Virus record (IMG/VR): IMGVR_UViG_3300001687_001195
Location: 16,108-80,107 of that record
Direction: 5' to 3' (one strand)
DNA length: 64,000 nt
Source: a virus
Taxonomy: Duplodnaviria > Caudoviricetes
Part shown: piece after piece, positions 12,286 to 61,068 of the stretch
Layout: the number at the start of each line of letters is the position of its first letter
Numbering within the stretch: the stretch's first letter is position 1
Translations under genes and position numbers: made by a program
Notes under the pieces: generated by a model
Databases searched by the model: none
What the model was told of the DNA's origin: nothing
Seen by the model: the letters and a program-made list of their open reading frames with translations, nothing else

Positions 12286-15200
12286 ATGGCGCGTCGTACC
12301 GGGCAAATGAATGTTATCTTCAAAGGCGAAGATAAGCTTTCTGCCGTCGCGCAAAAGGTAACATTAGCGCTCGGAGAGGTTGCGCGTGCGGGGCAACTTT
12401 CTCGTGCTGCTTTAGGATCTCTTGGCATTGGCGTTGCTGCTGCATTTCCAGAACGGAGTGTACGTAGAGCCAGGCAATTTTCAACGGCTACTGGACAAGT
12501 CAGAAGTAAAGTTGGGGAAGCCAGCCGTGCCGTAGCGCGCATGAACAGTATCATGGGCGCTGCTGGACGCCGCGTAGGATTTGCTACGAAGGCGATGGCT
12601 GGCTTTTTTGCGGTGTTCACGGGTATTCGAGCATTACGGGCGACAACGACGCTGTTGGCTGAGTTTGATGACACGATGGCGCAGGTAGGAGCCATCTCTA
12701 GAGCAACTGCACGAGAGTTCGAGTACTTGACGAAGACTGCTCGTGCTCTTGGCGCCACGACAAAGTTTACTGCGAAAGAGTCTGCTGAAGGTCTTCTCTA
12801 TCTTGCGCGTACCGGGTTTAGTGTTCAGCAATCGATTGCTGCCGTTCGGGCGACATTGGACTTAGCTACGATCGGCTTCATGGATCTTGGAGAGGCAGCC
12901 GATTACGCATCTAATATCGTTCAGCAATTTGCTCTTCGAGCGGAAGATACACGGCGCGTTGTGGATGCAATGGTCGTCGTATCGAACAACGCCAACACCA
13001 ATATTCAGCAGCTAGCTCAGGCGTTGAAATTCGCTGGACCCCTTGCGGGCGCTCTTGGGCAAGAAGTAGAAGCTACGTCAGCCGCAATTGGCGTATTGGG
13101 AGATCGCGGTCTTCAAGCAACTCTTGCTGGACGTGGTTTGCGCGGAGTGATGGCTTCTTTGTTGAAGCCAACTGATGAAGCCCGCACTGTATTGACACAG
13201 ATGGGCATTGCGCTGGATAAGATCAATCCAGAAGCGCATAATCTTGTTTCCATCTTCAAGACATTGCGCGGCGCAAATCTTAGCGCTAGCCAGGCATTGC
13301 GTATATTCAATCGTGAATCGGTGAACCAGGCATTGATTCTGATTCGCAATGTCGAATCAATGGAGGATCTTATCGATCTTCAGAAAGAATTGGCGGGGGA
13401 ATCGAAACGCATCTCTGACGTGATGCAGAGTACGCTTGGCGGGCAATTCAAACAACTTCGTTCCGCAATGGAAGAATTTGGACAGTCGCTTGGAGAAGCA
13501 GGACTGACCAAATTCTTGAAAGACAGTACACAAGTTCTTACTGAAGCCATTCGTATTCTTGCGGGCTTTGAAGGCGCCGCACAAGAAGCTAGTGAAGGGG
13601 GTCTACGTCTTGCGCATGTGATTAAAGTTGTTACGGCGGGATTAGCAGCTTTTGTTGCTATGCATATTGGTGCATTTTTGATTAATCTCGGACGGATGTT
13701 GGTTGTTACAGGTATTTCATTTTTACGACTTGGTAACAATATTCGGTTGGCTACGGCAGCTTTGTTCCGGTACAACCGTATATCTACAGGAGCAGCCGTT
13801 GCGACAAGGATCCTTGCGCGAAGTGTGCGTGCATCAGGCATTTCTTTTACCAGCATTGCATCATTAGTAGCAACTGCGGTAATTGTTTTCGCATCGTTCA
13901 GTAGCAAAGCAAGTCTCGTTGACGAAGCGATGCGAAAGCTCCCGAACCGTTTTCATGAGTTTGCATTAGCTGCCGAAGAAGCAATCAAAATAAAAGTCCG
14001 CTTTGACAAGGCAATGGTGTCTGGGGATCAAGAGAAAGCGCTCCGTAGATTAACTGAACTTCAACATAATGCTAATGAGCGTGCGATAGAAATTGAAGCA
14101 CGTATCCGGAAACTTGGGGAAGCTAAAGTTCAAATTCCGATTGAAGAGATTGAACAAGTAATTCCTGTTATTCCCGAAATTCGGTTTTTTCCTCATCATC
14201 GTGCTGCTGCCATCAGAGAACTTGAACCAGTACTGCAAGAAATCGCTAAAAAGCTGCGGCTGGAAATTGAAATTGCTCCTGGCATCGTAGATACACGAGC
14301 ACTTCTGATGCTGATTCGTCAGTTTGATGATTTGAGGGAAGCGATTCGTGAAGCAGAAAAGAGAGGACAGGATTTTGATCTTACGTCGCTGATTACGAAG
14401 TTTGATAGAGTCACTTCGATAATTGGCGAATATATTGTGAATCTAAAGGATAAAACCCGCATAAAACTTATTGATCTTCTTGCTCCTCTACTGATGGAGA
14501 TATATGCTGCGCAAGTCGAGCTTGAAAAAGTAACGCGTTTATATGGAGCACGGGGAGTTCAAGTACCTGCTGAAGAAGCTGCAGCGTTACGCAGGCGCAT
14601 TCAGGATGCGACAAAGAAGGCAACAGAGGAATTACAAAAATTCGCTAAGAATGCAGATGCGCTATCAGGGAAAGCCGCAAAGAAATTTATTGATGATTTT
14701 AACAAAGCTGTAATTGGGAGATTTCGAGAGCTTGGAAAAGAAGCGCCGAAGGGCAAGCCACCTGTTTACGATCCGGTGGAGATGGACAAAGCGACAATCG
14801 CTTTGGAACGCTTGATAAAGGCTACACAATTTGAAACTCAGCTTATAGGAGAATCGGCATCTAAAAAACGGATTCTAACGGCTTTACGGGAAGCAGAAGC
14901 ACATGCTCTCAAGATTGAAGAGACAGAGCGTAAGAAGCTCATTGCGCGGTATCGAGAAGCGTTAGAGCTTCAAGAACGGGAACTTGCTAATTGGGAACGG
15001 CAAGAGGGCGAAAGAAAAGCATCTAAAACAATTGGAGACATCATTCAGCAATTGGATCGCCGCATCGCTTTGATGAAGGTAGATGCAAGTATTGCTGAGA
15101 CGATGCGGCAAGTTTGGGATGCAAATGATAAGGTAAATACGAAAAATATATTTACATTCTTGAAGTTCAACGCCGTCTTGATGGCTCGTCTTTTGATTTT

Positions 15201-17919
15201 GCGAGCTTTGGAGCGAAAGGAAGAAGAACGAAGAAAGAAGCAAGCAGAGGAAGAGCGTAGAGAGGAGCGACGTAAAGCTGGTGGGGAAGACATCAAGCGC
15301 CGTATTCGAGATCTTGAGTTCGAGGTTTCGTTAATAGGTAAGGGGACGATTGAACGTGTTCGCGCGATTGCACAGCAAGAGCTTCTCAATATCGCTATGG
15401 AGACCGGCGCTGAGGTTTCCCAGAGGATGCTCGATCATGTAGCTGCGCTTGCAGAGACTCTCGAACGGGCTGCGCAAGGGTCTCAGAATCTTGCTCAAGA
15501 TTTCAAGGAAGCGCTGGCGGAGGGCGGAGTCTCTCAGGCGACGAATGTTGTTTTCGACAACTTGAAGAGACAGATTCGCGGAACGGAAGAGGAAGTTACA
15601 GTTTTCAGCGCGGCGCTTGGGGATGCCTTTGAAGATGCTGCACGAGCGGGAATGGATGCCTTTACCGATGCTTTATTGGATCCTCTTGTAAAAGAGTTCC
15701 AGCGAGTTTTCGGTGACAATGGTGTTTTGACAAAGATTCTCAGTGCATTTTTCGATACATTCCTGCGGATGATGATGCAGGGGCTTGTTTCGCAACTTTT
15801 TGCTGGACTTGGGATCCCAGGACTCGGCGGAGCGAAACCTGGACCGTTTTCGGTTTCATTGGCGCCTAGCACAAATTATGACATTGTAGGCGGCGGCGGT
15901 GGCGGAACATCGCAATTTACGGGCGGCGGTGGAGATTTTGGCACAGCCGCGCCTGAAGGGGCTGCTCCGCTAGGCATTCCGGATAAGCAAGGAAAACAGC
16001 CTCCATTAACTCCCATCATTCCGTTTGTGTTGCCTCCTCCAACGGCGCCAAGACCCAAACCTGTTCCTATCCCGCGTAGAAAGCCTTTTCCGGCCCCTCC
16101 GCTACCGAAACCACCGGAAGGGGGCGCACCCCTTGGTGGTGGTGCTGCGGGGCCTCCTGTGCCTCCAAGGCCCCCTAGAAGGCCATTCGCACCCTCTCCC
16201 ATGGGAATCCTGCGACCGATTTTTGCTCGACTTTCGCAAGCATTCCCGAAGGCCCGGCGTGGGCAGCAGTTTCCGACATTCGGAGCATTTGCACAGGCGC
16301 TTCAGGCGGGCAAGGTGGTTTCTGCACCACGTCCGCTTGCTACAGGACTGCCGGGAGGGTTAGACCGCTACTTAGCGGCGCCAGAACCAGCGCCCGGAGG
16401 TGGAGGGGATTACGGATCAGCCGCCGCTCCTCCAATGCCAGAGGCCATAACGCCTTCGAGAACAAGGGGAGAAGGGGCTGCTCCTATTCCTGGGCGTTCG
16501 CCTTTCGGGATTCGTGGACAAGCACCAGGATTATCGAACATTGATTTTAGTTACTTAGGTGCGCAGATTGGGCAAGTTCTGCCACCGAAGGGAGCCCAAG
16601 TTGCGACATCGTTGGCGGGTTTGGGAGGAGCCGTTTCGAGTGGATTAGCGGGCATTCTTGGCCCATCGAGTGCGCTGGCTGGAGTACTTGGGCCTATCGG
16701 AGCAGCGTTAAGCTTGGCAACGATCGGAGCTACGCTAGGGATTGAGAGTTACACGCAAGGCAAGCAACTTGATGAGATTATCAAAAGCGGATCATTGAAA
16801 GATGTGGACAAAGCGTTTGGTCGAATGGAACGTCGTTCGATGTATACGCTTTGGAATCCTTTCCTTTGGTCTGCGGCGAATCTTCCAGGTCTATTTACTT
16901 CAAAAGCATTCAAACCAGGAGAGAAGATAAGTGCTGCTGGTCTTGGAATGTTGGCAGCAGCGCCGCTTTCTATCTTGGCTTTCGGCCCTTTGGGTATCAT
17001 TGCGGCGATTGCAGGTATCGGTCATATCTTCAGTAGAGCGCGTAAACGTGCAAGACGGAGGTTGAAACGAGAACTGCGGCGGTTGACAAATCTTTTGCGG
17101 GATCAAGTCAAGGCGGCATTACCAGACACGGTTACACCTGACTATCTTGCAAAGTTGGATCGCATTTTTACAGCGGATTACCTTTCGAGAGATGAGTTAA
17201 ATCGAATTGCTTCGGAAGGTTTGGATCCATATCGGGATCTTGAACTTAATATTCTACAGCGCAATCCAGCTTTCCAAGCGTATCGTCGTGCATCTGGGGC
17301 ACCATACTTAGCGCCTGGCGGTTCTGCTCCTCTTGGCATTCCTGCCATCAACCAGCCACCTATGGCTGAAGACTCGGTAACGCGTTTAGTGAATCCGGAT
17401 GGCTTGGAATCCGGTTTGAAAGCTATACAAAGATACCTTGTTCCTCTAATTGAAGATGTACGTGTATCGGAAGGTATTCGTGAGTCAATGGATTTGTCAG
17501 TGCCATTGGCTCAATTGATTCCACATAGATTCACTAAGCAAGCTCTTTCAAGGCATCCGGAAGTCTTTCCTGAAGTTGAAACGCATGAAGGCGCCAAAGA
17601 TTCCCCCTGGATGTTTCGTCCACTTACTGATGGGCTCTTGACTAAACTGACTAAGGCAATACGCCCAACTCAAACACTTGGGGACGTGACCTTTTCTCGT
17701 GGGGCAGAACAAGCACTTCTTTCTGCACGCGAAATCTATCTTGGTCAGATGCAACGATTGGGATCTAGAGGACAAACAGTCGTGCAAGTGGGAGCACCAC
17801 AACTGAGCGTAAATGCCAAGCTTTCTGGAGGTTATTCTGTAGAGATGTTGGCGCGCGATTTGAGCTTCCACACAGCCAAGAGTATTGGAGCGTCGTTGGG
17901 TACTCTTTCTAATGTGTAG
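12286..17919 (+). CDS. Tape measure protein (TP901-type core) with long Pro/Gly-rich C-terminal extension
   Basis: FDDTMAQVGAIS, ARALGATTKFTAKESAEGLLYLARTG, NTNIQQLAQALKFAGP, followed by helical repeats. 1877 aa. Confidence 0.92.
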   Translation: MARRTGQMNVIFKGEDKLSAVAQKVTLALGEVARAGQLSRAALGSLGIGVAAAFPERSVRRARQFSTATGQVRSKVGEASRAVARMNSIMGAAGRRVGFATKAMAGFFAVFTGIRALRATTTLLAEFDDTMAQVGAISRATAREFEYLTKTARALGATTKFTAKESAEGLLYLARTGFSVQQSIAAVRATLDLATIGFMDLGEAADYASNIVQQFALRAEDTRRVVDAMVVVSNNANTNIQQLAQALKFAGPLAGALGQEVEATSAAIGVLGDRGLQATLAGRGLRGVMASLLKPTDEARTVLTQMGIALDKINPEAHNLVSIFKTLRGANLSASQALRIFNRESVNQALILIRNVESMEDLIDLQKELAGESKRISDVMQSTLGGQFKQLRSAMEEFGQSLGEAGLTKFLKDSTQVLTEAIRILAGFEGAAQEASEGGLRLAHVIKVVTAGLAAFVAMHIGAFLINLGRMLVVTGISFLRLGNNIRLATAALFRYNRISTGAAVATRILARSVRASGISFTSIASLVATAVIVFASFSSKASLVDEAMRKLPNRFHEFALAAEEAIKIKVRFDKAMVSGDQEKALRRLTELQHNANERAIEIEARIRKLGEAKVQIPIEEIEQVIPVIPEIRFFPHHRAAAIRELEPVLQEIAKKLRLEIEIAPGIVDTRALLMLIRQFDDLREAIREAEKRGQDFDLTSLITKFDRVTSIIGEYIVNLKDKTRIKLIDLLAPLLMEIYAAQVELEKVTRLYGARGVQVPAEEAAALRRRIQDATKKATEELQKFAKNADALSGKAAKKFIDDFNKAVIGRFRELGKEAPKGKPPVYDPVEMDKATIALERLIKATQFETQLIGESASKKRILTALREAEAHALKIEETERKKLIARYREALELQERELANWERQEGERKASKTIGDIIQQLDRRIALMKVDASIAETMRQVWDANDKVNTKNIFTFLKFNAVLMARLLILRALERKEEERRKKQAEEERREERRKAGGEDIKRRIRDLEFEVSLIGKGTIERVRAIAQQELLNIAMETGAEVSQRMLDHVAALAETLERAAQGSQNLAQDFKEALAEGGVSQATNVVFDNLKRQIRGTEEEVTVFSAALGDAFEDAARAGMDAFTDALLDPLVKEFQRVFGDNGVLTKILSAFFDTFLRMMMQGLVSQLFAGLGIPGLGGAKPGPFSVSLAPSTNYDIVGGGGGGTSQFTGGGGDFGTAAPEGAAPLGIPDKQGKQPPLTPIIPFVLPPPTAPRPKPVPIPRRKPFPAPPLPKPPEGGAPLGGGAAGPPVPPRPPRRPFAPSPMGILRPIFARLSQAFPKARRGQQFPTFGAFAQALQAGKVVSAPRPLATGLPGGLDRYLAAPEPAPGGGGDYGSAAAPPMPEAITPSRTRGEGAAPIPGRSPFGIRGQAPGLSNIDFSYLGAQIGQVLPPKGAQVATSLAGLGGAVSSGLAGILGPSSALAGVLGPIGAALSLATIGATLGIESYTQGKQLDEIIKSGSLKDVDKAFGRMERRSMYTLWNPFLWSAANLPGLFTSKAFKPGEKISAAGLGMLAAAPLSILAFGPLGIIAAIAGIGHIFSRARKRARRRLKRELRRLTNLLRDQVKAALPDTVTPDYLAKLDRIFTADYLSRDELNRIASEGLDPYRDLELNILQRNPAFQAYRRASGAPYLAPGGSAPLGIPAINQPPMAEDSVTRLVNPDGLESGLKAIQRYLVPLIEDVRVSEGIRESMDLSVPLAQLIPHRFTKQALSRHPEVFPEVETHEGAKDSPWMFRPLTDGLLTKLTKAIRPTQTLGDVTFSRGAEQALLSAREIYLGQMQRLGSRGQTVVQVGAPQLSVNAKLSGGYSVEMLARDLSFHTAKSIGASLGTLSNV

Positions 17920-45439: not shown

Positions 45440-45723
45440 TGCCGAAAGTGAACTTGCGGCGCGTGGCTCAGAAGATCATGATTGCTGGACCAACGCGCGT
45501 TGTGATTGATCAAGAAGGAACTGGAGTTACTTGTCAACGCGCTAAGAAGCTTGGGGTCAAACCGCAAATCATTTTTATTCGAGACGATGGTTGGTCAATC
45601 GGGTGTCGTCGAGAACATGAAGACGTTACAGAATCGCTTTGGACAGAACGATGGATTGGAGTGATCATCGCCCCTTCATCAGAAGCACAACCATACATTC
45701 CGAAAGACAAGAAAGATGGATGA
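45439..45723 (+). CDS. Hypothetical protein
   Basis: TGATG overlap. Confidence 0.5.
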   Translation: MPKVNLRRVAQKIMIAGPTRVVIDQEGTGVTCQRAKKLGVKPQIIFIRDDGWSIGCRREHEDVTESLWTERWIGVIIAPSSEAQPYIPKDKKDG

Positions 45724-45943
45724 AGGCAGTTCGGGATCTGGTAGTGGACCGAACGTAAACATGAATGCTTACAAGGTGGCTATGGAGCAAATGTTTGCTG
45801 CTTTGAACAACGAAGTGCCCACAGGCTTGTTTGGGTTTTATGCGCGGTGTAGAAGTGAAGGCTTCGATGAAGATAGTGCGATGAATCTAACAGAGCAAGT
45901 GCTTGAGAAATTGCTCTTGGTACTATTTCCGAATGCAACGTGA
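45716..45943 (+). CDS. Hypothetical protein
   Basis: Overlapping start. 75 aa. Confidence 0.5.
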   Translation: MDEGSSGSGSGPNVNMNAYKVAMEQMFAALNNEVPTGLFGFYARCRSEGFDEDSAMNLTEQVLEKLLLVLFPNAT

Positions 45944-46026
45944 GGGGACACGCACGCCTATTCCTTTCTAATTAACAAACCAAGCCAATACCTGTTAACA
46001 GTGCTGTCCCCTCACCTTTTTTATTT
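45940..46026 (+). terminator. Large-loop hairpin/terminator displaying the anti-leader sequence
   Basis: 15-bp stem GTGAGGGGACA(C)GCAC/GTGCTGTCCCCTCAC, 45-nt loop beginning GCCTATTCCTTTC, then CTTTTTTATTT. Confidence 0.6.
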
Positions 46027-46321: not shown

Positions 46322-46897
46322 ATGGTGCTGCGAGGTTTCTTGGTTGTTCTGCTTCTGTTCAGCATGATCTTGATGTCGGGAAGCGCTACTCCAGTTTCGG
46401 ATGCAATGCTTCTCAATGCTTACGCTTCCATCTACATGCCTTGGGGCATTGGCATTGTCCCCCAACCCTGTGTACCTGGAGTTCCGGCAAAGATCATTGG
46501 TTTTTCCAACAACGGACCTTCCCTGTTGGACATACCAAATTTCATGACGAGTTCAATAACTGTCGATCCTGGGGGAGACCCGAATATTCCTTGTGATTAC
46601 AATATTCAGGCGACGGTTTCTTGGCGTTCAGCGCACAATGGATGGCCTCAAAGCTCAGAGGGAGAATGGGCTGTCTACGTGAATGGGGTACAAAGACCAG
46701 GTTTGGTTGTGATTTCAAACGCTATCCCATCCAATAGTACGGATCTGTGGGTATGTAGTATCACAGGTTTGTGTACTCTATATCCGATGGATGTAGTTGA
46801 ACTTTATTTCACACAAAGATTTCCTATAACCCCTGTAACAAATTGGACAGTTGAGTACGGAGCGGTTCATTTGTCCATACTTCGTTTGATGCCGTGA
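46322..46897 (+). CDS. Exported protein, C1q/BclA-CTD-like beta-sandwich
   Basis: Signal peptide. YNIQATVS..WAVYVNG..SITGLCTL..DVVELY..HLSILRL. Confidence 0.55.
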   Translation: MVLRGFLVVLLLFSMILMSGSATPVSDAMLLNAYASIYMPWGIGIVPQPCVPGVPAKIIGFSNNGPSLLDIPNFMTSSITVDPGGDPNIPCDYNIQATVSWRSAHNGWPQSSEGEWAVYVNGVQRPGLVVISNAIPSNSTDLWVCSITGLCTLYPMDVVELYFTQRFPITPVTNWTVEYGAVHLSILRLMP

Positions 46898-46907
46898 GGA
46901 GGTTGTT

Positions 46908-47522
46908 ATGCAAGCTCTAAAGCGGATCACTATTAGTATTTTACTGGTTTGCTCTGTTCTCATTGGTATCGGAATGTTGCATTCGGTTGCGACCGATTCC
47001 TCTTTGGCATTGGGCGGTTTTGCCTCTATATATCGTCCAAGTACAGCGGGATCATTTTCGATTGGTCCTACTCCCTTGGGCGTGCCTGTACAAGTAACAG
47101 GGTTTACTGCGAATGGACCTTCTCTATCCGATATTCCGAATTTTGCCACAAGCTCCATTCAAGTTTGCCCTGGACCCGTTGGCGGAGAAGTATACGATTA
47201 CAATGTGCAATGCACGATTTCATATGACATCTGTACACCTTTAATGATCCCTCCTACTTGTTGGAACGGTGGGGTGCAGTTTGTCATATATGTAAATGGT
47301 GTCGCTGTTCCGTCTTTGTGGCATTCGGATTATGTATGTCCATTGATTTTGGGTCTCTTCAACAATGCGGATGAAGTGACTCTTACGGGGTTGGTCAGTT
47401 TAACGGAAAGCGACATCGTGACAGTGTGGGCGATATGGGTTGGTCCTCCATGGGGTTGGATGGGGGTACCTGAAATACGCATACACAATGCGCATCTGTC
47501 GATTCTTCGTCTAAATCCTTAA
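46908..47522 (+). CDS. Exported protein, paralogue of 46322-46897
   Basis: Signal peptide. Shares ASIY, GF..NGPSL.DIPNF.TSSI.V.PG, DYN.Q.T.S, YVNGV, TGL..L, HLSILRL.P with its neighbour. Confidence 0.6.
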   Translation: MQALKRITISILLVCSVLIGIGMLHSVATDSSLALGGFASIYRPSTAGSFSIGPTPLGVPVQVTGFTANGPSLSDIPNFATSSIQVCPGPVGGEVYDYNVQCTISYDICTPLMIPPTCWNGGVQFVIYVNGVAVPSLWHSDYVCPLILGLFNNADEVTLTGLVSLTESDIVTVWAIWVGPPWGWMGVPEIRIHNAHLSILRLNP

Positions 47523-47995: not shown

Positions 47996-48073
47996 CAACT
48001 CGCAGGGCACTCTGCAACTCATTCATCCCAAACCAACCTTTGTTTACCCGCGGTGTCCTGCGAGTTGTTTTAT
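47996..48073 (+). terminator. Large-loop hairpin with U-tract
   Basis: 15-bp stem CAACTCGCAGGGCAC/GTGTCCTGCGAGTTG (one G.U), 42-nt loop, then TTTTAT. Confidence 0.6.
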
Positions 48074-49967: not shown

Positions 49968-50050
49968 GGTTCCCTCCGTAAACTGGTCTTTTTCCGTGAT
50001 AACGTATGTTGGAGGGGTTTGTCAACAAAATACTGTAAGTATGTAGAATC

Positions 50051-51084: not shown

Positions 51085-52134
51085 CCGTCGCGCGGAAATT
51101 TGAAGGGTGCCCCATGGCAGAGTAGTAATGCTGCTTTGCAGCGACACTTACTGCAAGCCATGCTTTCGGATCACAACACGTTTTGCGCAACGCATTCCCC
51201 GGTGTCGGTAAAGCATGCACATGGTACGCTTACATGTTTCATGGGGCATAGAATTGGCGCCCTGTGGTGGGATTGTTTACCCACAACCCGTTGGCAAGAC
51301 GAGCACCGCTCGTGGACGCAGTATGCGGTGTCTGCAGCTACCTACGTACTGCTCCCTGCCTGAATAAGAGCGTGCTTGACCATTTAGTAAGGCTACAAGC
51401 TTCACAGGGCATTGTTTCAAAGAGTTTTCCGTGGCAGGCCCTATTCCCTGCAATGGTCATTCTTAATACGCTCACTCCCCGCACAAAGAGCGGTTCATTG
51501 TGGCGGTTGCTGATTGGACGGCGCGCAACGCTCCGTATTGCCTCAGTAACAAACGCAGCAATGCATCCAAAGTAGCATGCTCCATGGCGGAAACCTGACA
51601 AGCTTTGAATCCATCCGATTGTGTGTTTGTCCGTTCGCAATCCAGCACGGAAAACTCTGTAATTTTTCAAAGAGCTAAACGATGTGGGCGCGTGTCATGC
51701 GTCATTCTTTTGTTGGCGACTCTGATCGATTTGTCAAGTTTGAAAATCCTGTAAGTTTCACGTTCAATAAGTTGCGTGAAAACCTTGTAAGTCTGTGAGG
51801 GCCTAAAGACTCCCCCGCCGCTCAGACCCCCACCCGCGAATCCGACCGTTCGGGCTCTGTTCGGTTCGGAGTCCGTTCGGGTGTTAACTGACCCCGGTAT
51901 CGTTTAACAGCCGGGTCAGTTTACAAACCGCGTTACAGATCCTTTTAACGGACCCTGAGCGGGAGCGCTATAGCCTATCGGATCCGCAAAGAGCGCGGGA
52001 TAGTTTTTTTCAAAAATCCCCCGAAACTTTTGGCCCGCGAAACCGATCTGTAATATGATAGACGGTATGGTTTGGGCGTGATTCGCCCGCGGCAAGGGCC
52101 AGCCGGTTATCGGCCCGGAAAGGAATAGGCAAAC

Positions 52135-53004
52135 ATGCCAAACGATACGGGGCGCCTAGACAACCCCGTGACCCGCGCGAAACGGGCACGGGAAAAAGGG
52201 GCGCCGGAGTACCCTACCAGTTACAAGGGCTGCGCGGCTATCTGGCAAACCCGGCGCCGCAAGCTTGCAAATAACACGTATCTGGTAGCGGCTACAGTAT
52301 GGGCGGAAGCCGAGCCGTGCCCATGGTACGGAATCCGACTCCATGAGACCGTGGTTATTCAGTATTTCCGAGACGGTTCGATCCGGCTCGACTCCGGCGG
52401 TTGGCAAACCGTTACCACGAAAGCCCGAATCAATTGCGGCCTTCCGTCCGGTTGGATAATCGGGTCAGACCGCGGGGTTTGGTATCTGTATCGCCCGGGG
52501 GAAAACGGGTATTCCGATTTCAAAAACGGTATTCCATTTGCCGATGGAATCGTGATCGGCCCGCGCGGGGGGATTTCGGGTAGCGGCCCGGACGCAAAGA
52601 AAACGCGGAAACTGCGGGAGCGAATCAACCGCTTTTGTCGGGATTACGTCGCCGCATTGTGGGCCGGTAAGGTACCCGCGCCGGGTGCGGGCGATTGCTT
52701 TTATTGCCAAATGCCGGAGCGGTGTTACATCGGCACGGTGAAGGATGGGAAGCTTGAGACGCGGCAGGGTGTACACCCGGACCATTTGCTTTCTCATATG
52801 CGGGAAAAGTATTACGTGCCGTCTCTTCTCAATCTCGCCGCGAAAGCAAATCCAGATACGATTTCCCGCGCGGCCGGGCATCAAATCGGCCATCTTTGGG
52901 GGTACCATGATGCCGGACCCTTCCCCGGTGGCGATTTCCTGCAGGAGCAAATCCGCAAGTGTTTGCGGAAGTATATGCTTCATGCGTTCGGCTTGTCCGT
53001 CTAA
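52135..53004 (+). CDS. Hypothetical early-type phage protein
   Basis: GAAAGGAATAGGC leader. KLANNTYL..IRLHET..I.LDSGGWQTVTTKARIN pattern. Confidence 0.7.
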   Translation: MPNDTGRLDNPVTRAKRAREKGAPEYPTSYKGCAAIWQTRRRKLANNTYLVAATVWAEAEPCPWYGIRLHETVVIQYFRDGSIRLDSGGWQTVTTKARINCGLPSGWIIGSDRGVWYLYRPGENGYSDFKNGIPFADGIVIGPRGGISGSGPDAKKTRKLRERINRFCRDYVAALWAGKVPAPGAGDCFYCQMPERCYIGTVKDGKLETRQGVHPDHLLSHMREKYYVPSLLNLAAKANPDTISRAAGHQIGHLWGYHDAGPFPGGDFLQEQIRKCLRKYMLHAFGLSV

Positions 53005-53021
53005 TGGAAAGGAATAGGCAA

Positions 53022-53495
53022 ATGCAAGACGATTTTTCAGCCGTTGAAAAACTCGTTCTCTCTCGATTGTGGAGCGCGGCGAAAGAAGCGAAACCGATCC
53101 GGGACGCGGTTTCCCCTGGCAATTATCACGGGGAAATGGTCGCGCGCATTCGGTACGGGGTGACGGTTTCCCAGGATTACACGCAAAAGGTAGCGGCGCG
53201 GATTCCCTGGCAACGGATTTGCGCCATTCTCTTCGGCAAGGTGAATACGGCAACGCTGGAAAGCGTAGTCCGCGCTGCAATGGATCCGGCATTTGAACCC
53301 GATAAGGAAATCGAGACGCGCGCCCGCGCTGCCGTTGAATCCATTCTCGGGACGACGAAGCAAACATGCGCCGGGCGGGTATCCCTGACCGCAACGGCCG
53401 TGCCCGTAGTCAGCGCGGCGATTGAGACCGAAGCCGAGTCGTTGCGTAACACGTTTCAGCGAAACCGCGCCGCGCTCGGAAAGCAGAGTAGATAA
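53022..53495 (+). CDS. Hypothetical protein
   Basis: GAAAGGAATAGGC leader fixes the start at ATG 53022. Confidence 0.65.
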   Translation: MQDDFSAVEKLVLSRLWSAAKEAKPIRDAVSPGNYHGEMVARIRYGVTVSQDYTQKVAARIPWQRICAILFGKVNTATLESVVRAAMDPAFEPDKEIETRARAAVESILGTTKQTCAGRVSLTATAVPVVSAAIETEAESLRNTFQRNRAALGKQSR

Positions 53496-53520
53496 GCAGG
53501 GGGGCCGCGCCCCCCTGCTT
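53494..53520. promoter_or_regulatory. Perfect 12-bp hairpin just upstream of an RBS
   Basis: AAGCAGGGGGGC-CGC-GCCCCCCTGCTT. No U-tract. Confidence 0.5.
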
Positions 53521-53538
53521 CATTGAAGGGAATAGCCC

Positions 53539-54123
53539 ATGGCGATTACTGAAACCGTATCAGACCCCGACGCGCCGGGCGCCTATTGCCGGGTGCATCC
53601 GTTGCATTTTCAGGGTATAGACCATAAGACAACCTATTTCGTCACGTATGCGCGCGGGTGCGTTGTCGCGCTGCGGGAGCGGAACTATCACGATGATTCC
53701 GATTTTTATGCGGTGTATTACGATCCGGAAACCGATACGTTCAAAGAAACGTGTTACGCAACGACGCGCGGCTGGACGTACCTAAACGGGGCGCGGGTAG
53801 ACGCATCGCCGGAGTTAGCCGAGCGCTATCGTGTATGGGAACGGAAGCAAAAGAAATTCGCCCATTGCCGAGCGGTTCGGCTGCAGATTGCCCGCATACG
53901 TGACGACGCAAGAACACACGTTAAGGGCCGAGCGCTCGCCCGGATTTTGAAAATGACCTTAGCCGAGCGCTCGGCCGTTTGTGGTTTGCTACGGGTACAG
54001 CAATTCCGCTCCACGTTTCGGCGTGATTTGCGCGCCCAATTAGAAACGTGGTTAAATGATCCGGATCCGCAGTACCTTAGCCCGTTTTCGCGTCGGCAAT
54101 GGGCGTGTTTGCTTCGTTTCTAA
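53539..54123 (+). CDS. Hypothetical protein
   Basis: GAAGGGAATAG leader. YHDDSDFYAVYYD..YATTRGW pattern. Confidence 0.7.
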   Translation: MAITETVSDPDAPGAYCRVHPLHFQGIDHKTTYFVTYARGCVVALRERNYHDDSDFYAVYYDPETDTFKETCYATTRGWTYLNGARVDASPELAERYRVWERKQKKFAHCRAVRLQIARIRDDARTHVKGRALARILKMTLAERSAVCGLLRVQQFRSTFRRDLRAQLETWLNDPDPQYLSPFSRRQWACLLRF

Positions 54124-54142
54124 CGGAAAGGAATAGGAAATC

Positions 54143-54463
54143 ATGCAAGATGGAATCGACCTTAGCAGCGCTATTTTCGGTAGTTTCCCCCGGGTTGACT
54201 TGAAACCCGGGCAGTACTTCGTCGGCATTGCGCCGCATTCGGAAGTATGCATGCACATGCGTTGCGCCGGGGAAATGATGCTAATTAAAATGCTTTCCCG
54301 CAATGCGGCGCAATTGTTCCGGTTTGATCCGATGCGCGGAAATTATCAGCCGTTTTCGGCTGCGGTCACGACCGGAGAAGCCGGTATCTATACGAACGCG
54401 GGGGAATGCTATGCATACGGGCTGCGCGTCGTTCTGCCGGGCGAAAGGGGTACCGAAGGATGA
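54143..54463 (+). CDS. Hypothetical protein
   Basis: GAAAGGAATAGG leader. Confidence 0.6.
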   Translation: MQDGIDLSSAIFGSFPRVDLKPGQYFVGIAPHSEVCMHMRCAGEMMLIKMLSRNAAQLFRFDPMRGNYQPFSAAVTTGEAGIYTNAGECYAYGLRVVLPGERGTEG

Positions 54464-54921
54464 TGGCTACCTTTGCGGATTTCGTTCCCCTGACCGCATC
54501 GCAAGCCCGAGAATTGCAAGCCCGATTAGACCGCTATATAACATGGGTTCGGGAGCGATTCGGGAACGGTTGGGCATGCTATGATCCGGACGACGTACCC
54601 GAAAACTGCAGACTTACGAACGAAGAGCGGAGTAAACTTGAAATTCACGATTGGGTGAATGATCCCCCGCGCCGATATTTCGCTTATGTGTTTCACCCGG
54701 ACGATCTGAAAAAGCGTTACATCGGTACATGGACAGGGGATAAGCTAGCGCGAATTTCAATTCTCGGGGGCCGGGTACGGGATAATTTCGGCGGGTGTCG
54801 GCGCTACATTAGTGCGTACGGTACGAACGGGGTGCGCTATTGGGGTTGGTACTATGAATCCGCCGGGGATTACTGCCGTCTAACCGCGTTCAAAGGCCAG
54901 AAAACAGACGGAAAGGAATAG
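54460..54921 (+). CDS. Hypothetical protein
   Basis: ATGA overlap. IGTWTGDKL..YWG.YY..GDYC pattern. Confidence 0.65.
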   Translation: MMATFADFVPLTASQARELQARLDRYITWVRERFGNGWACYDPDDVPENCRLTNEERSKLEIHDWVNDPPRRYFAYVFHPDDLKKRYIGTWTGDKLARISILGGRVRDNFGGCRRYISAYGTNGVRYWGWYYESAGDYCRLTAFKGQKTDGKE

Positions 54922-54927
54922 GCAAAC

Positions 54928-55167
54928 ATGAACACGAAAACAGAACGGACGCGTTTCTGGTCTTCCCCTGATACGACAACGTGTATTCAGTTTCGTACCG
55001 ACACGGATCCGAAAGTGTGGATCCATACAAATCTCGGATGGGTACCGATCGGTAATACTCCAGACGATGCGGGCGCAGCCGAAGCTTTTGCCGTAGATGT
55101 AGCGGCAGGGTACAAGCTTGAAGAAGCTTCCGAAGACACCGCGCGTTACATGGCCGGATGGGAATAG
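54928..55167 (+). CDS. Hypothetical protein
   Basis: GAAAGGAATAGGCAAACATG leader, identical to that of 52135. Confidence 0.65.
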   Translation: MNTKTERTRFWSSPDTTTCIQFRTDTDPKVWIHTNLGWVPIGNTPDDAGAAEAFAVDVAAGYKLEEASEDTARYMAGWE

Positions 55168-55172
55168 GTTTC

Positions 55173-55838
55173 ATGGCCCGTAAACCAAAAGACAAGCCCA
55201 AGGTACCCGTGGCTATCCATGTAGATTATGGGTATGGATCCAAAACGCTGAACACGTTTCAGACGCGCGAGAAGATGTACACGCAACGGAAAGAGAATTT
55301 CCGGATCCGTGCGCGATACGGCATGCACTACATCAAAGGAAATCGCTTGCCGTATTTCTCTCTCACGGCCGAGATTGACGTACTAGTGAACGGACGATGG
55401 AGGGATCACGCGGGCGGACAAATGCCCGATGAAATCGAGAAGCATTTCCCCGATTTGTACCACCGTCTCGCACGCTGGCATTTGACCGATCAAGACGGCT
55501 GCCCGATGCACTACATTGCGAACGGGAAATTTTGGGCGGACCTTATCGGGGGAAGACGCCCCTGGGGGGAAGGGGATACGGACCCGCTCGGCGCATTGCA
55601 AAGAACGATTGTTTACGGGGTGCTAAGTGAAGACTGGCAAACCCGATCCCTGATTCACTTGTGCAAAGACGCCGAAGACTTTGAGCGCTGGCTACAAAAC
55701 CGAATCCCCGGTTTGCGCGAAAAATTCCTGCAGGATATGAAGGGCTGCAACGTGACCCTGATTCCAGACGAAGTTTTGCGCAAACATTACCCGGAAGTCT
55801 TTGCAAAAGCTGTCCCCGAGATTCAGGGCCAACCGTAA
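55173..55838 (+). CDS. Hypothetical protein
   Basis: GGGAATAGG leader. PYFSLTAEI, RWHLTDQDGCPMHYIANG pattern. Confidence 0.7.
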   Translation: MARKPKDKPKVPVAIHVDYGYGSKTLNTFQTREKMYTQRKENFRIRARYGMHYIKGNRLPYFSLTAEIDVLVNGRWRDHAGGQMPDEIEKHFPDLYHRLARWHLTDQDGCPMHYIANGKFWADLIGGRRPWGEGDTDPLGALQRTIVYGVLSEDWQTRSLIHLCKDAEDFERWLQNRIPGLREKFLQDMKGCNVTLIPDEVLRKHYPEVFAKAVPEIQGQP

Positions 55839-55856
55839 GGAAAGGAATAAGAAAAC

Positions 55857-56153
55857 ATGGGTATTGTCCATTTGTGGTTTCAGGCGCCCGATAGCGGGCG
55901 TCAAACGCGTTGCGGAGCGCCCCTTGGCCCGAGCGCGGAAACTACGTGTCTTGCAAGGGAAGTTACATGCCCGGTTTGTCAGGAAATGATGCGCAAAGAC
56001 AATACGCTATGGATCATAGTAACGGGAAACATCGTTCGCGGGTTTAACGCATGGGGGCCATTTAACCATGTACTCGATGCGCGCCGCGCCCGCGAAAAAA
56101 TGGGGAAAGGCGGGTGCGTCATTAAACTATGGAACCCAAACGACGCGGGGTAA
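55857..56153 (+). CDS. Hypothetical protein with Cys/His motif
   Basis: GAAAGGAATAAG leader. VH..TRCG..VTCPVC. Confidence 0.6.
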   Translation: MGIVHLWFQAPDSGRQTRCGAPLGPSAETTCLAREVTCPVCQEMMRKDNTLWIIVTGNIVRGFNAWGPFNHVLDARRAREKMGKGGCVIKLWNPNDAG

Positions 56154-56230
56154 CGGATTAAACATGTATGCTCGGCGCGCAAACCGTATAACACGCGCGC
56201 CGGGTAACTCCGGAAAGGAATAGAAAAACC

Positions 56231-56509
56231 ATGCTAGTACAATGTGAAGAATGCAAACGCAAGGTTTCCGCTCCTGATTTGCAGGATGGGTTTTGCCCGT
56301 TTTGCCGACGCGAGCGGCGGCAGTATGTAACGCTATCCCGAGCGGACGTAGGGCAGCAATTTTTGCGGGCGTTCGGGCGTGTTTGGCCGGTCTCGGGATT
56401 CCTGGGGAGCATACAGTTTCGAGACGTTGGAAAACGGGTCTACTATATCGGGGGTGTTTTGCAAGCCGAAAGCGATAGCCAATATCAAGAACGTTTGGAC
56501 GAGATTTGA
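56231..56509 (+). CDS. Hypothetical zinc-ribbon protein
   Basis: GAAAGGAATAG leader. CEEC..CPFC. Confidence 0.6.
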   Translation: MLVQCEECKRKVSAPDLQDGFCPFCRRERRQYVTLSRADVGQQFLRAFGRVWPVSGFLGSIQFRDVGKRVYYIGGVLQAESDSQYQERLDEI

Positions 56510-56760
56510 TGGGGTACCGTAAACATGAAATGTGCAGGGTATGCAAAAGTATCTTTGTGGCTACCCGTCCGTCTGAGCGCGTTTGCCGGGCGTGCAAACA
56601 GGCTGCCGCGAATCGCGCTGCCGTAGCCGATGCATTGCGGCGCGAAAAGAAAACCAGCGTATCTATAACGTGTCGTGTTTGCGGGAAAAGCTTTCGCGCT
56701 CCCCCGCATTACACCCGTTGTCGTGAATGCTGGAAAAAGACTGCCGGAGAGAAACTGTAA
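56506..56760 (+). CDS. Double zinc-ribbon protein
   Basis: CRVC..CRAC and CRVC..CREC. Confidence 0.6.
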   Translation: MMGYRKHEMCRVCKSIFVATRPSERVCRACKQAAANRAAVADALRREKKTSVSITCRVCGKSFRAPPHYTRCRECWKKTAGEKL

Positions 56761-57170
56761 TGATGGATACATCCGACGAGTACGTTGCAGACGTATTGTT
56801 GCGGGAAATGGGCGCGGAAAGGGGAATCGAGTATGCGCGAAAGCTTGCCGGTTATCCTGGCCCGTTGTCAGCGCAGTATGCGCGTGTGGCCGATCTAATG
56901 ACCGCGCAAGTGATCCCGCGTCTTTACAAAGATGCTGCGGAGATCGGTAACAACCGCGCCGCATTATTGCGTCGTCTCAAAGACGCCCGCAGCGTTTTGA
57001 AAACTGAATACCGTGATCGGTTCAAAACATACATTTATGATTTCGACCGGAAATGTATGATCGGGGCCGGTTACATACTGCAATGGGTAAACGATGGGCG
57101 GACAAACCGGGGAACCGTTTACTGCGCTATCCTGGAAAAAAACTTCTTTGCAGAAGGGAATAGTGGTTAA
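56760..57170 (+). CDS. Hypothetical protein
   Basis: TAATG overlap. Confidence 0.55.
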   Translation: MMDTSDEYVADVLLREMGAERGIEYARKLAGYPGPLSAQYARVADLMTAQVIPRLYKDAAEIGNNRAALLRRLKDARSVLKTEYRDRFKTYIYDFDRKCMIGAGYILQWVNDGRTNRGTVYCAILEKNFFAEGNSG

Positions 57171-57350
57171 ATGGAAAACATGTACTGGATTGAAGAGCGT
57201 GCAATCGATCGGCTGCGCAAGGTGGCCCGACGCCTTTACAAAGAAGACCGTTTGACCGGGGATCAAATGCGGGATCTGGCGCAAACGATCGATTCCGCGC
57301 TGTCGGACGCCTTTAAGGTTGAGATACAAAAAGACGATACCCGCCCCTAA
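57171..57350 (+). CDS. Hypothetical 59-aa protein (absent from the ORF track)
   Basis: GAAGGGAATAG leader. MENMYWIEERAIDRLRKVARRLYKEDRLTGDQMRDLAQTIDSALSDAFKVEIQKDDTRP. Confidence 0.6.
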   Translation: MENMYWIEERAIDRLRKVARRLYKEDRLTGDQMRDLAQTIDSALSDAFKVEIQKDDTRP

Positions 57351-57642
57351 ACCCCTCCGGTCTACTCTACGGGGCGCGGTTTAGCCACGATGCATAAGAC
57401 CCCGCGCCCCTCAGAATCCCCTCTAGCGCCCCCCTACACCCCTAGAGCGGAATCTATAGGATGGGATATAGTAGTGACCCCATAGACAACCCCATACACT
57501 ACCCCCGTAGGCAAACCAAACCCCATAACAAACCCTACCCCATCACCCCCCTATACAGATAAGACGAATCTACACCCTACCCCAACGTACCAGCGGGGAG
57601 CGCAGCACATAACGCTCCCCCCTAAACTGAGGGTGAAGACCC

Positions 57643-57671
57643 TTGACTAGTGGAGTCTGTTTAGCTACTCT
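57643..57671 (+). promoter_or_regulatory. Sigma70-type promoter
   Basis: TTGACT (57643-57648), 17-nt spacer, TACTCT (57666-57671). Small palindrome GACT-AGTGG-AGTC overlaps the -35 box. Confidence 0.6.
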
Positions 57672-57678
57672 TCAGGCT

Positions 57679-57734
57679 GCTTATTCCTTTTCGGCCCGCG
57701 TCTCGGGGCGCAACGTCTCGGGGCGCGGGTTTTT
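57679..57734 (+). ncRNA. Candidate ~56-nt antisense sRNA against the early-gene leader motif
   Basis: 5' seed GCUUAUUCCUUUUCGG, then a GC/GU-rich terminator hairpin (CCCGCG..CGCGGG) and U5. Promoter directly upstream. No ORF. Confidence 0.6.
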
Positions 57735-57954
57735 GCATGTGGAGGGAAACTGCAGCGTTTTTCGCGGGGAATTGTGTAAGTATGTTGAACTGCTTAAACC
57801 CGTGTAAGTATGCGACACCCTTAATAGGAGGTTTTCGGCCCGAGACCCCCTACCCTGGATCCGGCGCGCTACCGTTTGGTAACGTTAACCAGATGTTAGG
57901 GGGTGTTAACGCGTTAAGGGTAGCGTTAAACGAGTTAACTGTCGTTTTGTAGCG

Positions 57955-58080
57955 GGCCGCGGGCGGGTTTGCGGGTGCGGGCGGGTGCGGGCGGGTTTGA
58001 CGGGTTTGGGCGGGTGCGGGCCAGCGCGGGGGAATAGTGGCCCGGGTGCGGGCGGGTGCGGGTTCGGGCGGGTGCGGGTT
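57955..58080 (+). repeat. GCGGGT/GGGC tandem G-tract repeats
   Basis: More than a dozen GGG tracts separated by 1-7 nt. Confidence 0.75.
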
Positions 58081-58275
58081 CAATCGTTTTCCATAGGCGC
58101 TATCCTGAAAAGCCTATTCCGACCGAACGGGGGGACCGTTCCCCCGCGCTGGCAAATAGTATATCGGCGCGGGCCGCTGGCAAGATACTTTTTTCTACTT
58201 TTCCGGGGAAAGTATGGACAAAACCGGCCCGGTTGGCGACTATACAGATAGAAACGCGTTTCTAAGGAATAGGCT

Positions 58276-58572
58276 ATGGTATCGGCGCCGATACCAAACG
58301 GATTAACGCCCGCGGGGGAATACTGGCCCGGTTCCCCCGCGGGCGTTCGTATGTACGGGCCAAACCGGAAAGGGATAGGCGCTATGGTAGTGTGGGTTCG
58401 GTTGAATAGCGGCCCGCGTTTGTGCAACGTGCTGCGGAAATACTGGTACCGAACGCCCGCGGGTTCGCGGGTTCCCCGGTTGATAGTGGCCGATATTGCT
58501 ACGGGGGAAAAGCATAGGGTACGTTTGGCCCGTATTCTTCCCCGTAGATTCCCCGGGTTCCGCCTTATCTAA
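58276..58572 (+). CDS. Hypothetical protein (second in-frame start at 58384)
   Basis: AAGGAATAGGC leader at 58264. GAAAGGGATAGGC leader before ATG 58384. Confidence 0.5.
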   Translation: MVSAPIPNGLTPAGEYWPGSPAGVRMYGPNRKGIGAMVVWVRLNSGPRLCNVLRKYWYRTPAGSRVPRLIVADIATGEKHRVRLARILPRRFPGFRLI

Positions 58573-58590
58573 AAACGAGAGGGAATAGCT

Positions 58591-58779
58591 ATGTTTTTAA
58601 GGCTTATGAAATCGTTGGCCCGCGTTGAAAACAGGATTCGGCAGTTAAAGGCGGAACGCCCACGCACCCGGACAGTAACGGGCCAAATTGATAGCCTAGT
58701 AACCCGCCGTTCTGAATTGCGGGCGGAATTGCGTCCGTACTTTGCGCTGATTGAGCGGGCCAGCGCGGAAAGGGATTAG
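58591..58779 (+). CDS. Small coiled-coil protein
   Basis: GAGAGGGAATAG leader. Confidence 0.6.
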   Translation: MFLRLMKSLARVENRIRQLKAERPRTRTVTGQIDSLVTRRSELRAELRPYFALIERASAERD

Positions 58780-58784
58780 ATAAT

Positions 58785-59153
58785 ATGGGAATTGTCCAGA
58801 TTAGCCCGCGCCTAACTCCGGGCGTTTGTATCGGGGGAACGTGGGTTAGCGTAACGCCCGCAAACCGTGCCGATCGGCACGGGCGTCCGTTTTGGCGCTG
58901 GTACATAGATCTGTCAAACGGGAAAAGCTTTACGGATTCTGACTTGAGCGGTTGGGGGAACGCCCGCGCTATGCTGGAATCCCTTTTGGCGTTTCTAGGC
59001 GCTTGCGCTGAATCCCTTAGTTACGGGAACGGGGAAGGGGAAAACGCAAGCCTATTTCCGCGGCCCGTTGGGGAATGGGCGCTACAGTATTCCGATGAAA
59101 TCGGGATATTACAGATTGAGTTAGCCGACGAAATCGAACGGGAAAGGGATTAG
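58785..59153 (+). CDS. Hypothetical protein
   Basis: GAAAGGGATTAG leader. DLSGW..MLESLLAFLGACAES..LFP..V.EWA pattern. Confidence 0.65.
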   Translation: MGIVQISPRLTPGVCIGGTWVSVTPANRADRHGRPFWRWYIDLSNGKSFTDSDLSGWGNARAMLESLLAFLGACAESLSYGNGEGENASLFPRPVGEWALQYSDEIGILQIELADEIERERD

Positions 59154-59156
59154 GCT

Positions 59157-59970: not shown

Positions 59971-60338
59971 TGGCCCGGAAATCTGATATTCAGGAATTGC
60001 GAGAACATTGTGCATGTATGGGTTTGACGTTGCACATATGGGCGCCCGGAGATAAACATGGGTGCCGCTATCGTTTCTTTACTGATAACGCAACGTGCTA
60101 CGATAGCGGGCGCCCGGTCGGCACGGTGTACGGGCGGAAAAATGCATGGGCGTTCGTTCACGCTTTTGCCCATGGGTACGGGCACGCCGATACAAGGATA
60201 GCGGAACCCATGGGGGAAACGTTGCGGGCTATTCTGGCTTGCGCAACGGGGAAGCTTGAAACGGGTTCCCCCGCGCTATCGTCAATTGCAGAATCAGCGC
60301 GACTAGCGCTAGCCCGCGCTGGCAAGCCTACGGAATAG
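59970..60338 (+). CDS. Hypothetical protein
   Basis: TAATG overlap. IWAPGD..RYRFF. Confidence 0.6.
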   Translation: MARKSDIQELREHCACMGLTLHIWAPGDKHGCRYRFFTDNATCYDSGRPVGTVYGRKNAWAFVHAFAHGYGHADTRIAEPMGETLRAILACATGKLETGSPALSSIAESARLALARAGKPTE

Positions 60339-60339
60339 G

Positions 60340-60975
60340 CGCCTATCCTGAACGCCCGGGCCAGAAACCCGGGCGTTACTCTGTACGGGCCAGCGCGGGC
60401 CGCTATCAATCGCACCCGCACCCGCGGCCCGTGAACCCTTGCCAGCGCAAACCGGGCGTTATAGCGGCCCGGAACCCTTGCCAGCGCGGAAACCCGCCCG
60501 CACCCGCGGCCCGCTACCAAACCCGCCCGGAACCTTTAGCCCGCGAAACCCTGAACCCGCCCGGGGGAATAGCGCTATTTAGCCCGAAATCGGGCCAGCG
60601 CGGCCCGTTAACGCCCGGTTTGGTTTCCCTTAGTGGTATAAGTCAAACCCGAAACCCGCCCGTTAAAACGCATCTAATGCCGTTTTAGCGCTATACGTTG
60701 CAAGTTATTACCTTAACTGCGCTTGTATCGTCAAAAAGTTAGTGTTTTGTTAGCAAACCCGCCCGAAACGCGAAACCCGCCCGGAACCCGATAGGCGAAT
60801 AGCCCGCGCCCATAGCGGCCCGCGCCCGAACCCGCGCCGATACTGGCCCGCGCTGGCAAGGGAAACCCGCCCGGAACCGTAGCCCGAACCCGCGGGCCAG
60901 CGCACCCGCGCCCATGGGGGAAACCGGGCGGAACCGGGCGGAACCCGCGGGCGTTAAACCGGGCGTTAATCCGGA
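60340..60975. repeat. Non-coding GC-rich repeat tract (AACCCGC, GCCAGCGC motifs)
   Basis: Dense ACCCGC repeats, the mirror of the 57955-58080 tract. No credible protein. Confidence 0.7.
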
Positions 60976-61068
60976 CGTATCGATACATCCCGACACACGG
61001 AATCCGCCAGCGGCACAGAAAATGCTATGCAGCAAGCGAAAATCTAGCGCGCGTCATTTTCACAAACT

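Follow-up and report, generated by a model that had tools for sequence, protein, structure and literature searches.

An intergenic unit of less than 100 nt, located between two blocks of small genes in an uncultured sediment phage, raises the question of whether the phage encodes an RNA that pairs with the leader sequence which these genes share. The first-pass annotation of this DNA had presented the unit as a complete small-RNA gene, with a 5′ seed complementary to the common leader of about 15 early genes. The window that was analyzed, 64,000 nt in length, covers positions 16108-80107 of a virus record with 80,107 bp. With a genome of ~92 kb, the phage belongs to the siphoviruses, and nearly all of its genes lie on the + strand. 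The genes for the portal protein, the major capsid protein (MCP) and the tape measure protein lie within the window (Table 1), and the replication genes lie upstream of it. Near-identical contigs (99.9-100% identity) are contained in several sediment metagenomes, and one such sample identifier is named in a paper on estuary sediment (PMC4411801). Samples with this phage include JGI 3300001855 and 3300027917, SRR6207735 and SRR6207736, and ERZ27279932. Four SNPs separate these contigs, none of them inside the 57643-57735 unit or in any copy of the leader tag. One contig with 100% identity (L150; JGI 3300027917, 92,008 bp) extends ~12 kb to the left of the record's first base and carries further genes beyond it at L150:1-5940 (628, 296 and 261 aa, among others). 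Since these genes are unique and lie upstream of the record's first base, we conclude that the record is truncated at its left end. The 52-64 kb module had also been considered as a long terminal repeat with pre-early genes as in T5, an idea that came from a 93-kb contig, and it was rejected because L150 shows the record to be simply truncated.

The shared leader is a 14-nt tag, GGAAAGGAATAGGC. With up to two mismatches it has nine matches on both strands against 0.40 expected, and the + strand holds three exact copies and four more with one or two mismatches. In every copy the tag sits 1-5 nt ahead of an ATG, always in a single orientation. The tag-bearing genes are small, number from 8 to 15 (~15 if the degenerate copies are included) and are found at 52.1-59.6 kb, with one more in the part of the genome that is represented at L150. 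The sharing of a leader, as first annotated, is therefore upheld for 8-15 genes, whereas the word "early" follows only from gene size and position, and an assignable function was found for none of the proteins of the tagged genes. Between 51.8 and 64 kb the + strand has 14 instances of the tag's core word and the - strand only one, and this strand bias, together with the fixed location 1-5 nt before ATGs, argues that the tag acts at the RNA level. One promoter-like site was noted upstream of the 52117 copy.

Structural and late genes carry short canonical GGAG or GAGG Shine-Dalgarno sites without the tag, and therefore the anti-Shine-Dalgarno sequence of the host should be canonical and able to match only the tag's first 8 nt. 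The alignment behind this statement uses a canonical 3′ tail of 16S rRNA, assumed for the host. Positions 9-14 of the tag (6 nt) are conserved as well, and because the 16S rRNA pairs with only the first 8 nt, the other six conserved bases need another explanation. The architecture appears to be that of an 8-nt Shine-Dalgarno element followed by a conserved 6-nt spacer. The concern that the host 16S 3′ end might itself match the whole motif is thereby answered in the negative. A general host-wide ribosome-binding site was likewise rejected as an identity for the tag, since its near-copies in unrelated viral contigs are explained by purine-rich ribosome-binding sites or by tandem paralogues. The called 98-aa ORF at 58276-58572 is dense with perfect inverted repeats (e.g., 58305-58320 with 58332-58347) and contains an in-frame tag with its ATG at 58367-58386; these packed repeats and the internal tag and ATG make both its coding status and its true start doubtful.

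The unit itself begins with a sigma-70-like promoter candidate and ends with an intrinsic terminator, having the anti-leader seed between them (Table 1). The two hexamers with their 17-nt spacer, the purine G57679, the seed, the hairpin and the U5 run were all found as first annotated. G57679 is the seed's first base and lies 7 nt downstream of the -10 hexamer. The seed makes 14 contiguous pairs, two of them G.U, with the tag at 52117, 53006 and 54910, where the tag copies are exact, and the claimed extension to 16 pairs at the first of these sites is right. Concerning the promoter candidate, it agrees with the consensus at 8 of 12 positions (5/6 in the -35 and 3/6 in the -10 hexamer), without an extended -10, and host promoter rules may differ. 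The + strand of the window contains 129 promoter sites of equal or better quality, i.e., ~1 per 500 nt, and such a site taken alone is weak evidence. Some weight comes only from its placement, since transcription would begin at the first base of the seed; for a chance site to be placed so that its start falls this close to the seed, within a few bases, the odds are ~1 in 100.

The hairpin is made of two direct 13-nt repeats. When folded, the 62-nt RNA leaves its first 14 nt free at the 5′ end and forms a stem of 18 bp (-32.5 kcal/mol, z = -4.84, 0/200 shuffles as good), while the fold of the opposite strand reaches only -14.9 kcal/mol (z = -0.24) and does not form the hairpin, because six of the stem pairs are G.U. 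Stability of the hairpin is thus confined to the + strand transcript, from which it follows that the element is read in that form. Of all compact hairpins in the genome that precede a T run, this one with its U5 run (57693-57735) is the strongest; a consensus scan did not list it. No gene is called between 57350 and 58276 in any of three contigs, a tRNA search gave no match, and Rfam searches were empty both for the 44-64 kb region at E-values up to 1 and for the full window at the gathering score.

Table 1. Positions of the genes, leader tags, anti-tags and control elements discussed in the text (coordinates of the window unless preceded by L150).
Feature	Position	Strand	Remarks
Portal gene	127-2328		
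Major capsid gene (MCP)	3472-4836		
Tape measure gene	12286-17919		1877 aa
Second anti-leader	45940-46025	+	complement at 45956-45969, in terminator-hairpin loop, then U6
Leader tag, exact	52117-52130	+	4 nt ahead of ATG 52135; seed pairing reaches 16 bp at 52115-52130; duplex -25.4 kcal/mol
Leader tag, exact	53006-53019	+	ahead of ATG 53022
Leader tag, 1 mismatch	54125-54138	+	ahead of ATG 54143
Leader tag, exact	54910-54923	+	ahead of ATG 54928
Leader tag, 2 mismatches	55839-55852	+	ahead of ATG 55857
Leader tag, 2 mismatches	56212-56225	+	ahead of ATG 56231
Leader tag, 1 mismatch	58367-58380	+	ahead of ATG 58384, in frame within called ORF 58276-58572; duplex -25.1 kcal/mol
Degenerate tag copies, span	53524-59155	+	
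Tag copies with 3 mismatches	53524, 55156, 58261, 59142	+	
GGAATAG-type core alone	ahead of ATGs 57171, 58591, 58785, 59554	+	
Tag copy in the record's missing left part	L150:2404		gene start L150:2417
C-rich, G-poor spacer	57390-57640	+	250 nt; GC skew -0.35 to -0.56; short CCCCAT/ACCCC-type repeats
Sigma-70-like promoter candidate	57643-57671	+	-35 TTGACT 57643-57648, 17-nt spacer, -10 TACTCT 57666-57671
Anti-leader seed	57679-57692	+	14 nt, unpaired; 12 Watson-Crick + 2 G.U pairs with tag, gap-free
Intrinsic terminator	57693-57735	+	18-bp hairpin 57693-57730, then U5 (T5 run 57731-57735)

In the 80-kb record, exactly two + strand sites pair with the tag along its full length (Watson-Crick or G.U), namely 57679-57692 and 45956-45969. 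First-order Markov simulation gave a mean of 0.073 such sites per strand and P(2 or more) = 0.007. Both sites were first picked by a plain mismatch count, without a wobble rule; the three departures from perfect complementarity that they contain between them are all C-to-U changes facing a G, wobble-compatible in + strand RNA, and by our own calculation mismatches would all be of the wobble type by chance with a probability of ~0.005-0.016. Additionally, both sites are intergenic, are established at coding-strand terminator hairpins and are predicted to be unpaired. It could be argued that the complements arose by pure chance, as the reading is post hoc and a U- and C-rich composition, such as the seed has, is frequent just upstream of terminators. 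However, two sites were observed where 0.073 are expected per strand, both of them intergenic and at terminators, and we consider chance very improbable.

Duplex energies were calculated over 114 translation-initiation regions and the tagged genes came first, as the first-pass annotation had anticipated for the motif-bearing genes. The top five ranged from -25.4 to -19.6 kcal/mol against a median of -9.0 kcal/mol, and a shuffled seed gave a mean of -9.8 kcal/mol versus -22.9 kcal/mol observed (top five). Pairing with the seed covers the Shine-Dalgarno region and the spacer, from -18 to -5 of the ATG. As for the variation of the leader among its copies, 5 of 13 changes keep the pairing with the seed, compared with an expected fraction of ~0.2-0.3, and the bias is not significant, so that this variation lends the anti-tag no further support.

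The second anti-tag (45956-45969) forms 13 Watson-Crick pairs and one G.U pair with the tag. It is predicted to be unpaired in a loop of ~45 nt, the hairpin having an energy of -29.3 kcal/mol (z = -5.10), and the terminator to which it belongs comes directly after the gene at 45716-45943. A third large-loop terminator, at 47996-48067, was tried as an anti-leader and rejected, as its best duplex was no better than 67% of shuffles; significant complementarity of its loop to gene starts was not found. In this terminator a stem of 15 bp closes a loop of ~40 nt that is rich in C and A, and terminators with large loops recur in the phage. Two adjacent genes at 46322-46897 and 46908-47522 are paralogous (37% identity), with relatives elsewhere absent.

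The surroundings of the 57643-57735 unit allow for other readings. Block 1 is a predicted operon (52135-57350) with eight tagged leaders. Downstream of its stop codon (57350) come first a hairpin that lacks a U run, then the C-rich tract at 57390-57640, which in its composition looks like a Rho loading (rut) site, and then the unit. On the 3′ side of the unit there are ~540 nt of non-coding DNA with phased GTTAAC-type sites, G-rich decamer arrays and promoter-like sites, and this repeat-rich DNA resembles a control region of block 2. A terminator with the control region of the next block behind it would be expected to show just this layout, which makes an ordinary terminator a serious rival. 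According to it, the hairpin and U5 end the block-1 operon, or form a promoter-proximal attenuator ahead of block 2 in the manner of lambda pR′-tR′, and the complementarity has no function in trans. The unit lies exactly between the end of block 1 and the control-like region, where a strong terminator for block 1 is to be expected in any case. Moreover, the promoter is weak, chance sites of its quality being frequent, and the second anti-tag is likewise found in an ordinary gene-end terminator. Nevertheless, this leaves unexplained why the module's most conserved word has two 14-nt complements without a gap (P ~0.007 before their location is considered), as well as their wobble-only mismatches and their unpaired state, and it has to place the terminator 343 nt past the stop codon of block 1, beyond a separate hairpin and a rut-like tract. 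We regard an ordinary terminator as plausible, if somewhat less likely than a functional anti-tag.

From the same layout it follows that the anti-tag could come as the stable 3′ end of the block-1 message and not from a promoter of its own. For this reason the description of the unit as a complete small-RNA gene was retained in part: the minimal anatomy of a 5′-seed small RNA and the strand-specific terminator are present, but completeness as a gene depends on a weak promoter, and the unit may just as well belong to the upstream operon, as the 3′ end of its transcript. If so, the anti-tag might act in cis, pairing with one of the eight tagged leaders of its own block-1 message and tuning the translation or stability of that transcript only. 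The location of the anti-tag and eight tags on one predicted transcription unit is consistent with this, and a downstream purine-rich element (57741-57749) offers the seed a local partner as well if transcription reads through. However, 6 kb or more separate the 45956 anti-tag from the first tag downstream of it, and this anti-tag belongs to another unit with its own terminator; block 2, beyond the terminator, also has tags, which makes an action confined to cis decidedly unlikely.

Several repeats were recorded in the non-coding DNA of the module. G-rich decamer arrays (~9 units) are established at 57959-58081, upstream of block 2, and their reverse complement recurs at 60411-60978 (~60.4-60.9 kb), after block 2. 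These inverted arrays flank the 58.3-60.3 kb gene block and could be iterons or operator arrays. GTTAAC-type hexamers with a phasing of ~10-12 nt are found at 57880-57940, 51880-51950 and 60600-60965, i.e., in the three long non-coding regions of the module, which suggests that one DNA-binding regulator acts on all three. The word TGTAAGT (often TGTAAGTAT) is located on the + strand at 50034, 50971, 51750, 51786, 57775 and 57803, almost only in non-coding DNA, and may be a promoter or operator element. Finally, words from the 3′ half of the tag form near-perfect palindromes in the non-coding DNA at 58093-58122, 60331-60346 and 60568-60581; a 9-nt partial anti-tag is present at 58112-58120 (also non-coding), and an element of 18-20 nt is common to 58093 and 60335.

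These palindromes and the occurrence of the 3′-half words in both orientations bear on the idea that the tag is the site of a translational repressor or of a DNA-binding factor, or a recombination hot spot for the shuffling of cassettes, and that the reversed copies are extra sites or scars. A protein ligand is considered too by the authors working on start-associated sequences (SAS), the published tags most similar to the present one (PMC3203893; PMC11373665). On the other hand, the full tag is strictly strand-biased and keeps a fixed spacing to the ATG, an RNA-binding protein has no need of complementary copies, and the flanking homology that would mark a scar is absent. Specifically, the similarity of the anti-tags to the leaders ends at 13-14 nt, and hence they are not recent inverted copies of leaders. 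A DNA or protein element thus appears unlikely as an explanation of the anti-tags.

Comparative evidence was looked for widely. Blastn against phage records gave no relative, and viral contigs scanned with the neighboring protein, with seed and stem, with tag and ATG, and with the DNA polymerase returned either nothing or random single matches. A metagenome scan with an 18-mer produced 23 single matches, compared with ~14 by a rough chance estimate. Protein searches of 5.8 billion proteins and an exhaustive HMMER search led only to the phage itself, a paralogue and remote matches. One candidate relative (P0004) was discarded, as it sits in an unrelated integrase context. The sole relative (L144/L118; L144 from sample ERZ27256770) has an MCP that is 74% identical, and its contigs, of at most 15 kb, do not include the tag/anti-tag region. 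None of the collections yielded a diverged relative in which this region is present. Other tag-bearing contigs were also screened for anti-tags, with nothing convincing.

Taken together, the best single explanation is an RNA-level anti-tag element, in which a 14-nt anti-tag RNA borne by a terminator would pair with the tagged leaders and lower their translation; we put it at somewhat less than an even chance. It builds on the anatomy of the sequence, on the strand-specific fold and on complementarity in statistical excess. From these we infer that such an RNA is made, at which base it begins, and that in vivo it pairs with the tag and thereby represses. The segment 57679-57735 would specify a 3′-terminal RNA module, in which the 14 nt of the anti-tag are exposed and directly adjoin a highly stable terminator hairpin with its U tail. 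Its source may be the weak promoter of the unit, giving an RNA of ~57 nt, or else the transcript of the block-1 operon, of which it would be the stable remnant at the 3′ end; that the small RNA gene stands by itself, with a promoter of its own, is less certain than the anti-tag element as such. Pairing with the ribosome-binding region of tagged messages would compete with the 16S 3′ end and reduce translation. The second anti-tag, in the terminator loop at 45940-46025, would do likewise from a different transcription unit, and both together could bring about a module-wide shut-off or dampening. Duplexes of 14-16 bp on about a dozen messages would require the RNA to be abundant. If the anti-tag element is real, it would constitute a compact post-transcriptional means of timing or damping a whole phage gene module, and also a ready-made orthogonal tag/anti-tag pair for synthetic control of translation. 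If it is not, the locus is an ordinary terminator and the ligand of the tag is still to be found.

The tag has a published precedent, which the first-pass annotation missed (PMC3203893). By its sequence features it is, as far as these can tell, of the SAS type known from Cluster K mycobacteriophages, where the consensus is GGGATAGGAGCCC (Pope et al., 2011, PMC3203893), and from Cluster EF Microbacterium phages, where an analogous SAS reads GGGAAAGGACCCC (PMC7302621). SAS were defined as asymmetric words of 13 bp that are present 11-19 times, 3-7 bp ahead of start codons (for the most part ATG) and at non-structural genes only, conserved also where pairing with 16S rRNA is impossible, and their ligand was left open by the authors as "RNA or protein", a phage-encoded RNA included (PMC3203893). 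The same study reported one reversed copy in each of four K1 phages, away from gene starts (PMC3203893), and the role of SAS was still termed unknown in 2024 (PMC11373665). The present tag and the SAS of Clusters K and EF have in common an asymmetric word of 13-14 nt, 10-19 copies, a location 1-9 nt before mostly ATG starts of non-structural genes, a Shine-Dalgarno core joined to conserved positions that are unable to pair with 16S rRNA, and a single orientation apart from rare reversed copies. They differ in the sequence of the tag, and the phage is unrelated.

The reversed copies differ as well, since those described here are established at terminators and pair without gaps, while the one in Mycobacterium phage Anaya has an internal C-C mismatch. 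Anaya carries 16 forward SAS copies and one reversed copy, the latter (L152:44871-44883) being on the coding strand in the 385-bp intergenic gap between gp96 and gp97, downstream of a clear terminator. It lies inside a strongly structured region (z = -4.3) and is mostly unpaired in the predicted fold. Adephagia has an equivalent of this copy, and Cluster K1 phages have a cultivable host and published RNA-seq (PMC11373665). In the Cluster EF phage AnnaSerena, ten forward tags and no reversed copy were found in the 50 kb examined, and one cis hairpin covers a single Shine-Dalgarno site; an anti-tag RNA is therefore not a general companion of such tags. From the sequences compared, the reversed copy appears to be recurrent, though not universal. 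SAS have been catalogued in several actinophage clusters for more than 10 years without a known ligand or function, and two independent terminator-anchored complements of a tag in one phage amount to a concrete RNA-partner hypothesis for them. More broadly, start-associated tags might be address labels that are read by phage-encoded anti-tag RNAs at terminators, here forming an RNA switch that would lower the translation of ~15 genes, and we offer this wider reading as a tentative possibility only.

Other known systems resemble the proposed one in part. The lambda pR′-tR′ unit, which yields the 6S transcript, is similar in that a gene block is headed by a promoter with a strong terminator close behind it; the lambda 6S RNA is not known to have antisense targets, and no antiterminator gene was recognized in the present phage. 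In T4, two proteins, the RegB nuclease and the RegA repressor, shut off early messages module-wide through a signal in the ribosome-binding site. The likeness to them is a functional analogy only, and no RegB or RegA homologue was detected in the phage. By analogy of mechanism, the nearest precedents would be the c4 RNA of P1 and P7 and the bacterial anti-Shine-Dalgarno small RNAs with multiple targets. The c4 antisense RNA exposes segments that pair with ribosome-binding regions of phage messages, and it can be encoded in the same operon as its targets. It has one target region, a different fold and a role in immunity control, as opposed to about a dozen genes here, and membership in the c4 family (Rfam C4) is excluded by the absent Rfam match. 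RybB-like small RNAs with a 5′ seed and the C-rich anti-Shine-Dalgarno small RNAs of Firmicutes (RsaE/RoxS, RNAIII) have a short single-stranded seed beside a Rho-independent terminator, and one such seed pairs with the Shine-Dalgarno regions of many messages. Those RNAs are encoded by the host and their targets share only short motifs, whereas in the present phage the putative targets share an identical 14-nt tag, and tag and anti-tag alike are phage-encoded.
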